Assembly (NCBI GenBank): GCA_035688915.1
Contig: DASSMK010000346.1
Span: 25,389-89,388, forward strand
Length of the DNA stretch: 64,000 bases
Source of the DNA: Thermoanaerobaculia bacterium
GTDB lineage: Bacteria > Acidobacteriota > Thermoanaerobaculia > Gp7-AA8
Reading direction: 5' to 3'
Part shown: piece after piece, positions 24,797 to 53,227 of the stretch
Layout of the letters: each line of letters begins with the position of its first letter
How positions within the stretch are numbered: position 1 is the stretch's first letter
Made by a program: the position numbers and the translations under genes
The notes under the pieces: generated by a model
What the model was told of the DNA's origin: nothing
The model's input: only the letters and a program-made list of their open reading frames with translations
The model's database searches: none

Positions 24797-24813
24797 GATA
24801 ATTGGGAATTATC
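24797..24813. promoter_or_regulatory. 17-bp palindrome GATAATTGGGAATTATC (site A, copy 1)
   Basis: An AT-rich perfect palindrome in GC-rich DNA, 16 nt upstream of ATG 24830 (1 nt from the alternative ATG at 24815). The identical site is at 29767-29783. Confidence 0.6.
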
Positions 24814-24829
24814 CATGACGCGCCGCAGG

Positions 24830-26500
24830 ATGGCGCTCGGCGTGCACATCGGCCACGATCGTGGCGCCGCCGTCGTAGTGGACGGTGCGCTCGCCGGCGC
24901 GCTCGCGCAGGAGCGCATCGATCGACGCAAGCACTCGCCGTCTCCCGATCTCCCGTACGGCGCGATCGATGCGCTCCTGAAGTACTTGCGGATTACGCCT
25001 GAGGAACTGCGGAGCGTCACATTCAGCTACACGAACGTACGGATCGCCGAGATCCTACCCCAACTCGAAGCTGAGTTCCGCGAGCACTACGAGCTTCCGA
25101 GGATCGCCGTGCTGGGAGTCTCGCACCATGACAGCCACGCGCTCGCGACGTTCTACACATCACCGTTCGAAGACGCGCTCGTGCTCATCGCGGACGGCTC
25201 CGGGGACATCGTGGACGATCGGCTCGAGGCCGAGAGCCTCTACCGCGCAACGCGCGCACGCGGGCTCACGGTTGTCGCGCGGCGTCTGCAGGACTTCCCG
25301 CTCACGTACCCGACCCGTCGCAACTTCTTCAACTTCGCCTACATGCACGAACTCGACCGCGCGAAGGAGGTAAGCCTCGGGCGGAAGTACGAGCAACTCA
25401 CCTACCTGCTCGGCTTCGCGCACGGCGAAGCAGGGAAGACGATGGGGCTGGCGTCGTACGGCGTGCCTATCGTTCACCGAAGGCCTTCGGTGAACGGCCT
25501 GGGATTCTCGTTGAAGATTCCCGACGTAATCGACGAGCTCGATGCGGTGCTCGCTGCCTCGGCCATCCCACACCATCGCTTCTATCGCGAGCGACGGGCC
25601 GATGTCGCTGCGACGGCCCAAGCGGTGGTGGAGGAGGTTGTGATTGACGTCCTGAACGCCGTGAACCCGACAGGCGCGACAAAGAACCTCTGCCTCGGTG
25701 GAGGGCTCTTTCTCAATTGCCTCTTGAACCACCGGATCCTGGAGCGAACGCGGTTCGAACGCATTCACGTGGTGCCCGCTGCGGGCGACGACGGTCAGGC
25801 GATCGGTGCCGCGTACCACGGCTACGTCGAGACAGTTGGGCCGCCAGCGGGAGGCGGCGTTCGCTCCCCGTACCTTGGCCTCTCCTACCGGCGCTCTGAC
25901 ATTCTGCGCGCGCTTCGGCACTTCCGCTTGCAGTACGAGGAGCTCGACGACGCGACGCTCATCGACCGTGTTGCGACCGCTATCGCGGACGGCAAGGTCG
26001 TTGGATGCTTTCGTGGGCGGTCGGAGTCGGGTCCAAGAGCGCTGTGCCATCGCAGCATCCTTGCCGACCCGCGGCCGAAACGGATGCGGGATCACCTGAA
26101 CCGCCGCGTGAAGTACCGCGAAGAGTTCCGGCCGTTCGCTCCAGTCGTCACGGCGGAGGACCAGTTGCGGTACTTCGACCTGCTGCAGGACTCACCGTAC
26201 ATGCTCCTCGCGGCGAACGTCCGCGCACGCTATCGCCGCAAGCTCGGAGCGATCACGCACGTTGACGGCACCGCACGCGTGCAAGCGGTGTCCTCCGACG
26301 ATGAGCCGTTCGTGCATGCACTGTTGCGACGGTTCGAGAACCTCACCGGGTTCCCCGTGCTCCTGAACACATCCTTCAATTTGTCGGACGAACCAATCGT
26401 CGAGTCGCCGCATGACGCCGTCTCGACGTTCTTGCGCTCGCGGATCGATCACCTGTTCATGGAGCGATTCCTCGTGACGAACAAACAGCCGCTTCGCTAA
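24830..26500 (+). CDS. carbamoyltransferase (NodU/CmcH/TobZ family)
   Basis: N-terminal MALGVHIGHDRGAAVVVDG, then ...IADGSGD...GLASYG... and C-terminal ...GRSESGPRALCHRSILADP...FRPFAPVV...VLLNTSFN. ORF-track start is 24761; ATG 24830 is preferred (alternative 24815). Confidence 0.8.
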   Translation: MALGVHIGHDRGAAVVVDGALAGALAQERIDRRKHSPSPDLPYGAIDALLKYLRITPEELRSVTFSYTNVRIAEILPQLEAEFREHYELPRIAVLGVSHHDSHALATFYTSPFEDALVLIADGSGDIVDDRLEAESLYRATRARGLTVVARRLQDFPLTYPTRRNFFNFAYMHELDRAKEVSLGRKYEQLTYLLGFAHGEAGKTMGLASYGVPIVHRRPSVNGLGFSLKIPDVIDELDAVLAASAIPHHRFYRERRADVAATAQAVVEEVVIDVLNAVNPTGATKNLCLGGGLFLNCLLNHRILERTRFERIHVVPAAGDDGQAIGAAYHGYVETVGPPAGGGVRSPYLGLSYRRSDILRALRHFRLQYEELDDATLIDRVATAIADGKVVGCFRGRSESGPRALCHRSILADPRPKRMRDHLNRRVKYREEFRPFAPVVTAEDQLRYFDLLQDSPYMLLAANVRARYRRKLGAITHVDGTARVQAVSSDDEPFVHALLRRFENLTGFPVLLNTSFNLSDEPIVESPHDAVSTFLRSRIDHLFMERFLVTNKQPLR

Positions 26501-50707: not shown

Positions 50708-53197
50708 CTACGCTTCGGACCAGAATTGAATATCGGACATTAGAAAACCATAGCCGTAGAATTTCCATACTGGGCCGACCTGAGGCCGTATGGTCTCATT
50801 GAGATAATTCCACCAACGCCGAATGTCGCCGATACCGACGTTATCGAATGCATTCGTAAGGAGCTCGTGTCGTTTCTCAAGCGCCGCACGATCTCCTTCC
50901 GGTATCGTAGGTATGCTCGCGGCGAGATCCAACCATTGAGCACGTGCGCGAGCGTGGCCATTGATAAGATGCTCGAAACACGTGAGATTGGTGCGTGCGA
51001 AATACGAGTAATAACCGTCACGCGGGAGGCGCTGCACAACCCCACTCAGGATTCCCAGCGCCATATTCAGATCACCGGCCAGCGCGTTCATGACGGCCAT
51101 GTTGTTGTCGATAAGAATGGCGTCGCCTGGATCTGGGATCGTCTCGACTACGACACGCATAGATCGCACTGCCTGCTCCGCGGTGACGGACTGATTATAG
51201 AGGGCTGCCACTAGCAGGTTGTTCAGGGGAATCTGCAACCTTGGAAAACGGATTGAAGGCATGGCGGCATGCATGCCGACAGCTTCGGCGGCGACACGCT
51301 GTGCGTCTGCGAATTCGCCGATCATGAGAAGGTTGGCGCCCAGATTCGTTAATGCAAAGTACAGTTGTATCGGATTTCTCGGCGAGGCTGGATCACTGCC
51401 GGTGAAGAAATGAACGGCCCGCTGGCATCGTTGGGCGGCGATCTCTGCTTGGAACAGCGCGGCATCACGGCGATCAATTATGTGCCGTGCCGAGTCCGCG
51501 AACGGATCAAAGGACGTTCGCATGGCCAGTTGAATCGCGATCAACCGGCTCGTCACGCGAGCGCCCGCGTAATCTCCATTATCGACCTGCATGATGGTCA
51601 GAATGGACATCAATCGGAACCATTGTTCGAATTCCACAGGCGTCTCATCGCGCCAGCGACGCAATATCTCGACCATGTAGGCTCGTGCGTTTGCTGATCC
51701 ATGCGTTTTGACGCAGCGTGCAGCGAGGTAATCCTTCTCCGCCATCAGCACTGGAGGATAAACGTCCGAAAGGTTTTCTAGAATGTCGTGTGCCGCGCGC
51801 GGCTCACCATTCCGGAACACCGTCCAGGCGCGCGAGAGCGCAACAATAAATTCGGCAATGTCAGGTGCAGCCTCGGCTGTGAAGTCGTCGATGTTTGCAT
51901 CGAGTGGGGCGTCCCCGTTACGAAGCCTCTGAAGGTAGTCCACGAAACGCATGATCAGCGCCTCATCCGTGCGGCCGGCGCGATCGTAGTGATATGCCCG
52001 CGACGCGTAATCGCCGGACCGCAATCGTGCAACACAGCGAGCAAATTTTTCGTGAACCTCCGGTCGCCTCGCTTCGACTCGGTCGAGAAACATACGCTGC
52101 ACAATTTCGTGAGAGAAGGTGCGACGGCCGCTTTCGCGTCGTAAAATATTGAGTTCGACGGCTCGCTTCGCCGCTCCCGCAAGATACGCATAAGGCTCGG
52201 TCAACAGACATTCGAGCTCAGGGTCGGAGATAGTGGCGCCCGCAACTGCGAGCAACTCGAGCGCCTCGAGGATCAGCCGTCCTTCGTCGCCGAGGCTGCG
52301 GACGCGTTCCTCGAAGAGGAAGTACAGTGAATGAGTCGTACGCCCGTCGACGGTCAGGCGCTTTGGTCGCGCGGGGTCTTGTCCAATGTATTCGGCGATC
52401 AAGCGAAGCACCTCCAGATGCCCGCCTGAGACTTGCGCACAAAAATCGACGACTTCATCTGGAAGTTCGACGGTTGCGCCCATTAGCCGGAGAATGGCGG
52501 CCACGTGTTCACGCGGCGCGTGAGGGAGGACCAACCGCTTCGGATGGAGGTTTCGGACGACGATGTCAACTGCGGGCGCGCGCGTCAACAACTCTGCGCC
52601 GGCGCAAACGATGCGCATCTGCTCCAGGAAGGGGTACGCTTCAACCACCTGAGGATCTCGGAGTGCGACGAGAAAATCGGCAGAAGCCGTATCGAGGAAA
52701 TGAAGATTGTCGACCGCGAGCAGAAGGGACGAATCGCCAGCGAGTCGCTGCAGATGAAAAAGAATTTCACGCTCTTCATCGCTGAGAAATCGCGTCGCCC
52801 GCTTTTGTTGATTTTCCCGTGAGTTGGCAATTACATCCACGACGAATGTGGCCAATCCACCCGCTGGAAGCGTGGCGCCCGCGACCTTCGCACTAGCGCT
52901 CTTGACCAGTCGCCAGTCATCCAAGCGTGACGTCAGTCGCGCGATTGCCGATGAGAACGGATATCGAACGCGGCGCGAGTACTCAGCGTCGCCGGCCACG
53001 CGGATGACGGGCCGGTCACCTGTTCGCCACCTGTCGCACACAGCACCCAACAACCAGGACTTGCCGCTGCCGGACGGACCCTCGATCAAAGGGACGGGAT
53101 CGCGCGCGAGTTCGAGGCCGATCGAGATGTCATCCAACAATTCCTTCTGGCGCGTGAGCTCGGCGACCCTCGACGCTTCAGGCACCAAACCGTCCAT
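50708..53197 (-). CDS. P-loop NTPase of STAND/AAA type with a long helical C-terminal region (829 aa)
   Basis: Walker A LIEGPSGSGKSWLLGAV and Walker B SLLLAVDNLHFLD. The C-terminal about 500 aa is helical and repeat-like. It is convergent with the ATP-grasp gene, separated by a 3-nt gap. Confidence 0.7.
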   Translation of the reverse strand: MDGLVPEASRVAELTRQKELLDDISIGLELARDPVPLIEGPSGSGKSWLLGAVCDRWRTGDRPVIRVAGDAEYSRRVRYPFSSAIARLTSRLDDWRLVKSASAKVAGATLPAGGLATFVVDVIANSRENQQKRATRFLSDEEREILFHLQRLAGDSSLLLAVDNLHFLDTASADFLVALRDPQVVEAYPFLEQMRIVCAGAELLTRAPAVDIVVRNLHPKRLVLPHAPREHVAAILRLMGATVELPDEVVDFCAQVSGGHLEVLRLIAEYIGQDPARPKRLTVDGRTTHSLYFLFEERVRSLGDEGRLILEALELLAVAGATISDPELECLLTEPYAYLAGAAKRAVELNILRRESGRRTFSHEIVQRMFLDRVEARRPEVHEKFARCVARLRSGDYASRAYHYDRAGRTDEALIMRFVDYLQRLRNGDAPLDANIDDFTAEAAPDIAEFIVALSRAWTVFRNGEPRAAHDILENLSDVYPPVLMAEKDYLAARCVKTHGSANARAYMVEILRRWRDETPVEFEQWFRLMSILTIMQVDNGDYAGARVTSRLIAIQLAMRTSFDPFADSARHIIDRRDAALFQAEIAAQRCQRAVHFFTGSDPASPRNPIQLYFALTNLGANLLMIGEFADAQRVAAEAVGMHAAMPSIRFPRLQIPLNNLLVAALYNQSVTAEQAVRSMRVVVETIPDPGDAILIDNNMAVMNALAGDLNMALGILSGVVQRLPRDGYYSYFARTNLTCFEHLINGHARARAQWLDLAASIPTIPEGDRAALEKRHELLTNAFDNVGIGDIRRWWNYLNETIRPQVGPVWKFYGYGFLMSDIQFWSEA

Positions 53198-53210
53198 CGC
53201 CGCTAACCCC

Positions 53211-53227
53211 GATAATTTCTAGTTATC
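53211..53227. promoter_or_regulatory. 17-bp site GATAATTTCTAGTTATC (site B, copy 2, reverse complement of copy 1)
   Basis: 13 nt upstream of ATG 53197 (minus strand). Confidence 0.6.

Follow-up and report, generated by a model that had tools for sequence, protein, structure and literature searches.

The 64,000-nucleotide stretch of DNA analysed here (hereafter the window), from a Thermoanaerobaculia metagenome-assembled genome (MAG), is, judging by its gene content, a defence island on a mobile element, and carries two compact pairs of convergent genes, cassettes A and B, each bounded by an inverted pair of AT-rich 17-bp palindromes. We conclude that these palindromes are very probably recombination sites, which bound cassettes that can be both inverted and exchanged as units. 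In relatives of the window inversion breakpoints fall at the sites, partner sites have identical centres, cargo is replaced at the sites and a gene for an Xer-like tyrosine recombinase is associated with them.

The pattern GATAAYTNNNAATTATC matches the 64 kb at exactly four places (Table 1), where none would be expected and where 100 dinucleotide-preserving shuffles yielded no match at all. No fifth copy was found in the 64 kb, either as GATAATTNNNAATTATC with up to three mismatches or as a bare GATAA-N7-TTATC. The initial annotation of this DNA had treated the four palindromes as one non-random family, identical within each pair when read in the direction of the gene, and both statements are upheld, as the four sites form two inverted pairs (pair A, GATAATTGGGAATTATC; pair B, GATAACTAGAAATTATC) whose partners are exact reverse complements. 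Three of the positions that it gave were correct, the second copy having been placed one base off, at 29767-29783 instead of 29768-29784. Its distances from site to start codon hold for cassette B (12 and 13 nt) and have to be corrected for cassette A from 16 and 18 nt to 1 and 19 nt. The carbamoyltransferase starts not at ATG 24830 but at ATG 24815, because its homologues start 0-5 nt past the site and the conserved M-x-R-x-R-I-V-L-G-V-H begins there. Rfam and tRNA scans gave no match at the sites or in flank F, a conserved non-coding block next to cassette B.

Table 1. Positions of the sites, cassettes, genes and flanking features in the window
Feature	Position	Strand	Remarks
Second short tyrosine recombinase, catalytic domain only, about the size of FimB/E	892-1746	-	52%-identity paralogue of 4939-5595; equally weak candidate for acting in trans
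Short tyrosine recombinase, catalytic domain only, about the size of FimB/E	4939-5595	-	Weak candidate for acting in trans
PLD-family protein	23569-24714	-	Other conserved flank gene of cassette A; transcribed away from the cassette; 82-nt intergenic gap to site A-left
Cassette A	24797-29784		4988 bp from site to site, about 100% of it occupied by two convergent genes
Site A-left	24797-24813		GATAATTGGGAATTATC; outer edge of cassette A, PLD side; inverted partner of 29768-29784
Carbamoyltransferase (Carbam_trans_N/C, Pfam)	24815-26500	+	Start codon 1 nt past site A-left
Mrr_cat nuclease + AAA_22/AAA_16 STAND-type NTPase, 1083 aa (Pfam)	26497-29748	-	Start 19 nt past site A-right
Site A-right	29768-29784		Reverse complement of A-left; in the last codons (..IIGNY..) of the CDP-alcohol phosphatidyltransferase reading frame
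CDP-alcohol phosphatidyltransferase	29745-30560	-	Flank gene reading through site A-right
Flank F, conserved, non-coding	49541-49598	+	GGTAGGGAA-N11-13-GTCACYCC, then the site after 28-32 nt
Cassette B	49599-53227		3629 bp
Site B-left	49599-49615		GATAACTAGAAATTATC
Ddl-like ATP-grasp enzyme (Dala_Dala_lig_C, Pfam)	49628-50704	+	GTG start 12 nt past site B-left
STAND-type NTPase (AAA_16, Pfam), 829 aa, without N-terminal effector domain	50708-53197	-	Start 13 nt past site B-right
Site B-right	53211-53227		Reverse complement of B-left

Each pair of sites encloses one gene for an enzyme and one for a STAND-type nucleoside triphosphatase (NTPase), which converge. The earlier view that the sites link two analogous modules of this kind is confirmed by the Pfam identities of the four proteins and by a distant homology between their NTPases (hhalign probability 96%, E 2.7e-9). 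The class assignment of both NTPases as STAND-type is by Pfam only (AAA_16/AAA_22). The label Avs-like, given initially to the NTPase of cassette A, finds no support, as no Avs model in PADLOC matched that protein; the cassette B NTPase gave a weak match to Avs2 over some 65 residues of the P-loop region (E 7e-5). Neither the four proteins encoded in the cassettes nor those of the flank genes were assigned by PADLOC to a known defence system; for the PLD protein it gave generic matches only. The cassette A NTPase, which is identical to protein P0001 of a Thermoanaerobaculia MAG, is rare, with 17 homologues among 5.8 billion proteins. In every lineage inspected its gene is convergent with a carbamoyltransferase gene and inverted sites of the same form surround the pair, which answers in the affirmative the question, raised with the initial annotation, of whether homologous gene pairs elsewhere carry the site. 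Homologous cassettes of 4960-5153 bp were found in 11 other lineages, with protein identities to the window of 24-73%, from Acidobacteriota, Ignavibacteriales, Melioribacteraceae, Croceimicrobium and Caldithrix.

Evidence that the sites recombine comes from related contigs (compared contigs or loci are labelled with L numbers, proteins with P numbers), in which both orientations of a cassette occur in otherwise identical genomes or populations (L001/L002, L010/L012/L013 and L016/L017). L001 and L002 are 100.000% identical over the 4987 bp from site to site, and the flank of L002 is the reverse complement of the opposite flank of L001; the inverted repeat common to the two is only 17 bp long. 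Between L012 and L010 the segment is 100% identical, the Xer-side flank (99.94% over 1758 nt) lies at the other end and the repeat measures 25 bp (17+8), while L017 matches L016 at 100% in all parts, the two flanks having changed places, and has a perfect repeat of 62 bp. The 17-bp site is thus the common denominator of the three cases, and the breakpoints lie within it. L013, which bears a SPAdes-style NODE name, has the same 30-nt Xer-side flank at both ends. These 30 nt and the 25-bp repeat add up to 55 nt, a standard SPAdes k value (inferred from contig naming and structure), and such a contig suggests that the two orientations coexisted in a single sample. Several further contigs stop at, or a few bases from, the sites. 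Orientation also differs between lineages. The window and L004 hold cassette A in opposite orientations relative to the PLD and CDP-alcohol phosphatidyltransferase (CDP-OH) genes, and flank F adjoins the ATP-grasp end of cassette B in the window and the NTPase end in L007 and L009; the flank in L007 is homologous to window positions 49539-49598.

The sites have the anatomy expected of core sites for a tyrosine recombinase, namely inverted arms around an asymmetric centre that is equal in the two partners. Positions 1-5 read GATAA and positions 13-17 TTATC, with a pyrimidine at position 6 and a purine at position 12, which makes the arms symmetric. Among 29 site pairs there are 26 distinct central 7-mers, and partners differ nowhere in the centre, all five mismatches lying in the arms; five of the pairs have a perfect repeat of 17 bp and no more. 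Tyrosine recombinases need an identical central (overlap) sequence in both partner sites. The centres of A and B (TTGGGAA and CTAGAAA) differ at three of seven positions, so that one enzyme could serve both cassettes without joining them. The same site sequence is kept in Acidobacteriota and Bacteroidota. At a further locus (L118) one cassette has two different site pairs, one nested inside the other at a distance of 36 nt at either end (11077-11129 and 15917-15969), which gives two concentric invertible boundaries.

Cassettes appear also to be exchanged as units, because in L110 and L112, whose flanks are 95% and 82% identical and whose site is the same, the cargo is unrelated and homology stops within 1 nt of the sites. 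Different modules thus lie, in relatives, between the same flanks and the same inversely oriented sites, as they do in dif modules. Searches based on the recombinase uncovered further cargoes in the same layout, including a STAND NTPase against an ATP-grasp enzyme with an NTP-transferase/GNAT protein; an Mrr-STAND-TPR protein against an NTP-transferase/phosphoenolpyruvate (PEP)-mutase fusion with an FRG-domain protein; a TIR protein against ThsA (SIR2-STALD), a Thoeris-type pair; and large unknown or TIR-like proteins against family-2 glycosyltransferases, a pyruvyl transferase, a serine hydroxymethyltransferase-like enzyme, a pyridoxal phosphate-dependent enzyme and a methyltransferase. In L028 (217-8897) the Mrr-STAND/PEP-mutase/FRG and Thoeris-type cassettes stand in tandem, with different centres and a 107-nt spacer, and are followed by one Xer-like gene. 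The hosts of such loci are Thermoanaerobaculia, Pyrinomonadaceae, Ignavibacteriales, Melioribacteraceae, Croceimicrobium and Caldithrix.

Cassette B has a GC content at third codon positions (GC3) of 0.62-0.63, compared with 0.77-0.80 for the genes of cassette A and PLD and 0.69 for the CDP-OH gene, a foreign codon composition that fits recent acquisition. A contig with 87% nucleotide identity to this cassette (L006) consists of 3631 bp running from site to site with 1 nt beyond each. A flank F-type block lies outside one site of the B-type cassettes in L007 (929-990), L008 (5919-5974) and L009 (~7905-7963), the DNA farther out being unrelated, and in L008 one 56-nt flank is present at both ends. 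This block may act as a promoter or an accessory site, or may belong to the mobile unit; in L007 and L008 it is followed by a GGAGG/CCTCC hairpin. Around cassette B the open reading frames (ORFs) 49067-49516, 49187-49537 and 53219-53542 look spurious and lack homologues in related loci. About 375 nt from the cassette, at 49190-49225 on the plus strand, GGTGGTCGGGGGTTCAAATCCCCCCTGCCCGACCA resembles the 3' half of a tRNA (T-arm, acceptor strand and CCA). ARAGORN found no full tRNA in the window, and the tRNA-like sequence is probably the remnant of an attachment site at the edge of an integrated element.

The enzyme acting at the sites is likely to be Xer-like, to judge from the genes that accompany them. 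A full-length Xer-like gene (Phage_int_SAM_1 + Phage_integrase, Pfam) adjoins the cassette in L009, L010-12, L023, L024, L025 and L026, among which L024 is annotated as a complete chromosome and L023 is a 787-kb contig of the same architecture. In L009 the gene lies directly upstream of the ATP-grasp end, and in L004 the PLD gene is all that stands between it and the site. Often it reads toward the cassette and ends 1-60 nt before the site. In L016 the gene is 3.7 kb away, and a 106-nt stretch abutting the site duplicates the 3' end of the gene at 93% identity (~9809-9914 and 6043-6148); the stop codon of the copy is the TAA of the GATAA arm, and some 3.7 kb with RES and P4 cII-like genes were seemingly inserted between the recombinase gene and the site. 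The best NCBIfam matches of the Xer-like proteins are XerC and XerD, and the catalytic residues R160, K184, H253, R256 (HxxR), H279 and Y288 are invariant. The association holds when cargo is ignored. With the recombinase alignment alone as query against viral and metagenome contigs, a site was present near the recombinase gene in nine of the ten best viral matches, as against one of the 70 others, and perfect inverted pairs stood beside the gene in half of the 18 best metagenome matches.

We propose that each palindrome pair constitutes inverted core sites for a tyrosine recombinase of the XerC/XerD type, with arms GATAA(Y)/(R)TTATC and an asymmetric centre of about 7 nt. Dimers of the recombinase, bound to the arms, would bring the two sites together, and strands would be exchanged across the centre, which would work only between identical centres. 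Within one molecule the outcome would be inversion of the cassette, and the cassettes of the window may flip still; between molecules with the same site, the cassette would be exchanged as a unit.

Each cassette gene would then take its expression context from the flank that it faces. The start codons of inward-reading ORFs lie at a median distance of 19 nt from the site (starts 0-24 nt), and many cassettes are about 100% coding, including every STAND cassette with a carbamoyltransferase or ATP-grasp enzyme that was examined. Most cassette genes examined are therefore left with scarcely any space, or none, for a promoter of their own, and each would depend on the flank faced. In cassette A the gene facing CDP-OH would be translationally coupled to it and the other would face the intergenic region on the PLD side, the two contexts being swapped by flipping. 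The ATG of the cassette A NTPase overlaps the stop codon of the upstream CDP-OH gene (ATGA). Such an overlap (ATGA or GTGA) between the end of the CDP-OH ORF and the start of the facing cassette gene is present in the native state in the window, L001, L003 and L004, and in the first three of these, but not in L004, it also forms when the flipped state is simulated. Because the overlap exists in both states, both orientations look functional, and flipping would swap the gene that is coupled to the CDP-OH operon. The possibility that inversion alters a flank gene, by way of a PLD ORF running through site A-left, was rejected, as similarity among PLD homologues begins outside the site. On these features of the reading frames, the case that flipping matters for expression is evenly balanced. 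Binding of the recombinase at gene starts may have a secondary regulatory effect. The flanks outside the A sites (24771-24796 and 29785-29810) have TCGCCGCTTCG in common at equal distance, within 44-nt arms of 80% complementarity; of the two copies, one falls in intergenic DNA and the other in the CDP-OH coding region, and the sequence was not seen in other lineages.

It could be argued that the palindrome is instead an operator or promoter part for a dimeric transcription factor (Fur/Zur/PerR-like or another) that co-regulates the four genes, as the initial annotation proposed when it invoked one dimeric regulator or a shared promoter architecture. The site is dyad-symmetric and AT-rich and lies 1-19 nt upstream of four start codons, and one sigma-70-like match uses AATTAT of site B-left as its -10. 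The implication that a protein binds a dyad-symmetric site is retained in the recombination model. Sigma-70-like matches are, however, at chance level (two found, 1.9 expected), the -35 of the B-left match is not conserved in L007 or L008 when the junction sequences are compared by eye, and the promoter scan found no such match at cassette A. An operator, moreover, gives no reason for a centre that is identical within a pair and takes 26 forms between loci, varying between lineages only. Within the 64 kb the copies of the motif are confined to cassette borders, and these free-centred borders do not resemble a fixed consensus at the promoters of a regulon. The initial annotation had named a position within 5' coding sequence as evidence against its reading; one copy, A-right, lies in a coding region, within the 3' end of the CDP-OH ORF. 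Promoter consensus sequences differ between Acidobacteriota and Bacteroidota, the phyla that carry the site, a point that would speak against a promoter element. As the sites are the breakpoints of inversion and cargo replacement, and as no regulator gene co-occurs with them whereas a recombinase gene does, we consider this reading very unlikely. Homologous recombination dependent on RecA between short inverted repeats, with no dedicated enzyme, could draw on the longer repeats of some lineages (62 bp in L016, 86 bp in L008). It does not account for L001 and L002, in which both orientations exist at 100% identity around a repeat of only 17 bp. Homologous recombination needs no particular sequence, yet GATAA-N7-TTATC is kept across cassettes with 24-35% identical proteins and unrelated cargo, and the recombinase gene accompanies it; we hold a role for RecA alone to be very improbable. 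Less probable still is that the sites are terminal inverted repeats of a transposon-like element with its transposase, or that the inversions are assembly artefacts. It is true that inverted repeats bound a discrete segment and that many contigs end at the sites. The flanks, however, show no target-site duplication (gtgcc/gcggc for A, tgtca/gctac for B), and there is no transposase in or beside the cassettes. An assembly artefact is unlikely because the 17-25 bp repeats are shorter than the k-mers implied by contig names and structures (k141; SPAdes k 55) and the junction k-mers are unique; independent samples and assemblers also agree, and L024 and L023 have the same architecture.

A different question is what recombination at these sites is for. 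It has a real, if rather less than even, chance of serving exchange between replicons, as proposed for pdif modules (the plasmid-borne dif modules of Acinetobacter), with inversion as a by-product and a convergent, promoter-less design that works either way round. This alternative has the same mechanism at the site as the model favoured above and differs from it in purpose only. It accommodates the swap of cargo exactly at the sites between homologous flanks (L110/L112), the foreign codon composition of cassette B, and the L028 array, in which two cassettes with different centres share one recombinase gene and one is a complete Thoeris-type pair that needs both genes expressed. The pairing of the cassette A NTPase family with a carbamoyltransferase down to 24% identity likewise suggests joint work. 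The Thoeris cassette and this conserved pairing favour co-expression of both partners. A role in exchange only is, however, countered by the recurrence of both orientations within single populations at 100% identity, and by the fact that, in three of the four lineages of cassette A, either end of the cassette is shaped so that it can couple with the stop codon of CDP-OH. That coupling of both ends shows selection on both states, and fits neutral and switching designs alike.

Several observations weigh against a dedicated Xer-like system that flips the cassettes of the window. No full-length Xer-like gene was found in the 64 kb by tblastn with eight Xer-like proteins, which matched only two short recombinases, at 0.9-1.5 kb and 4.9-5.5 kb. 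These two genes are 3.4 kb apart and at least 19 kb from the cassettes. Homologues of the short recombinases occur near cassettes in L003 and L010, the L003 homologue of 4939-5595 being 52% identical and 2 kb away from the cassette; the DNA around the two genes yielded no convincing inverted repeats, and their relatives in viral contigs are distant matches only (23-25% identity). The window's own cassettes were seen in a single orientation. The NCBIfam scores of the Xer-like proteins (230-246 bits) fall below the XerC/XerD equivalog cut-offs (330-335), for which reason we take the adjacent genes to be Xer-like paralogues and not housekeeping enzymes. The conserved arms are symmetric and only 5-6 bp long around a centre of 7 nt, and so depart from the dif/pdif form with its distinct 11-bp arms and 6-nt spacer. 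Conservation of the arms across the surveyed loci is, in addition, partly due to the search pattern used. Finally, ThsA and ThsB must both be expressed, so the cassette of L028 that holds ThsA and a TIR protein argues against a strict either/or switch.

The closest analogue of the system is provided by the pdif (dif) modules of Acinetobacter Rep_3 plasmids, whose sites are 28 bp long, with distinct 11-bp XerC and XerD arms, a 6-bp spacer and inner arms of the form ..GATAA/TATAA-N6-TTATG.. (PMC13141974). The likeness extends to modules bounded by inversely oriented Xer-type sites, to the replacement of modules between similar backbones and to arrays with different spacers. Here, by contrast, the site is a 17-bp one with symmetric 5-6 bp arms and a centre one base longer (7 nt), with no alternation of C and D modules, and a dedicated Xer-like gene usually stands beside the cassette, whereas pdif modules rely on the host XerCD. 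The cargo consists of convergent NTPase or effector and modifying-enzyme genes, most of those examined with little or no room for their own promoters, and not of resistance or toxin-antitoxin genes. The hosts are Acidobacteriota, Bacteroidota (including Ignavibacteria) and Calditrichota, in which the cassettes are on chromosomes or integrated elements.

Segments that are flanked by inverted repeats and flip in clonal populations are familiar from the G segment of phage Mu (Gin), the C segment of P1 (Cin), the P segment of e14 (Pin), the R64 shufflon (Rci) and fimS (FimB/E). Rci and FimB/E are tyrosine recombinases acting on short sites, and Gin, Cin, Pin and Hin are serine invertases, which use an enhancer besides sites of 26-34 bp. 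Inversion of the Mu G segment joins one or the other of two opposed gene sets to a fixed upstream part. These classical switches alternate variants of one function, such as tail fibres or pilins, or flip a promoter, whereas here two unrelated whole genes would be swapped by an Xer-like recombinase and the cassettes are also exchangeable. In laboratory recombinase-mediated cassette exchange, inverted or heterospecific lox/FRT sites allow both inversion and exchange, and variant spacers keep cassettes apart. The cassettes described here likewise lie between two inverted sites, but are apparently natural and have a site family and enzyme of their own. Integrons offer a further parallel, in compact, largely promoter-less cassettes that are expressed from a platform with a tyrosine recombinase next to them, and that often include defence genes. 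Integron attC sites, however, recombine in folded, single-stranded form and are directly oriented, and the cassettes are unidirectional and excise as circles; the recombinases found here score far below the NCBIfam integron-integrase cut-offs.

Beyond the cassettes, the window contains an Ssp/Dnd-like cluster, a single-stranded DNA-binding protein (SSB), a RepB-type primase and CHAT, NACHT and NB-ARC proteins. A run of minus-strand genes at 12528-21307 (HATPase, 3'-phosphoadenylyl sulfate (PAPS) reductase, a large ORF, DUF4007 and a class-V, cysteine desulfurase-like aminotransferase) resembles a defence cluster for DNA phosphorothioation of the Ssp/Dnd type. With three further large NB-ARC, CHAT or CHAT-NACHT-TPR proteins (6380-8953, 36581-39862 and 45020-48946), STAND-type immune genes are densely packed in the window; the 17-bp site flanks none of these three.

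Defence cassettes of this form, which are bounded by sites, can be inverted and exchanged and go with an Xer-like recombinase, were nowhere described in the literature searched, a systematic survey of inversions (PMC9881135) included, most subscription journals lying outside the search. A picture that we advance tentatively, at just below an even balance, is of a phylum-spanning platform in which a dedicated Xer-like recombinase and minimal 17-bp sites with lineage-specific centres handle compact cassettes that set a large immune NTPase or effector against enzymes modifying small molecules or glycans. Such cassettes would be flipped within populations and exchanged between genomes, as a natural counterpart of recombinase-mediated cassette exchange, and flipping would rewire which partner joins the upstream operon, so that defence would be heterogeneous in a heritable and reversible way. 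For annotation, the lesson is that an AT-rich palindrome next to a start codon in a GC-rich defence island ought to be examined as a possible recombination site before it is called an operator. If the reading is correct, one Xer-like enzyme and a 17-bp site, whose centre apparently sets partner specificity, would make up a compact recombination system for flipping and trading defence cassettes in several phyla, and the idea of the pdif module would extend far beyond Acinetobacter plasmids. The family of heterospecific short sites might then serve genome engineering, and the uncharacterized pairs of an NTPase and an enzyme (carbamoyltransferase, ATP-grasp, PEP mutase, glycosyltransferase or pyruvyl transferase) would be candidate immune systems. 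The cassettes would, in that case, provide a concrete mechanism for the turnover of defence islands and for heterogeneity within populations.

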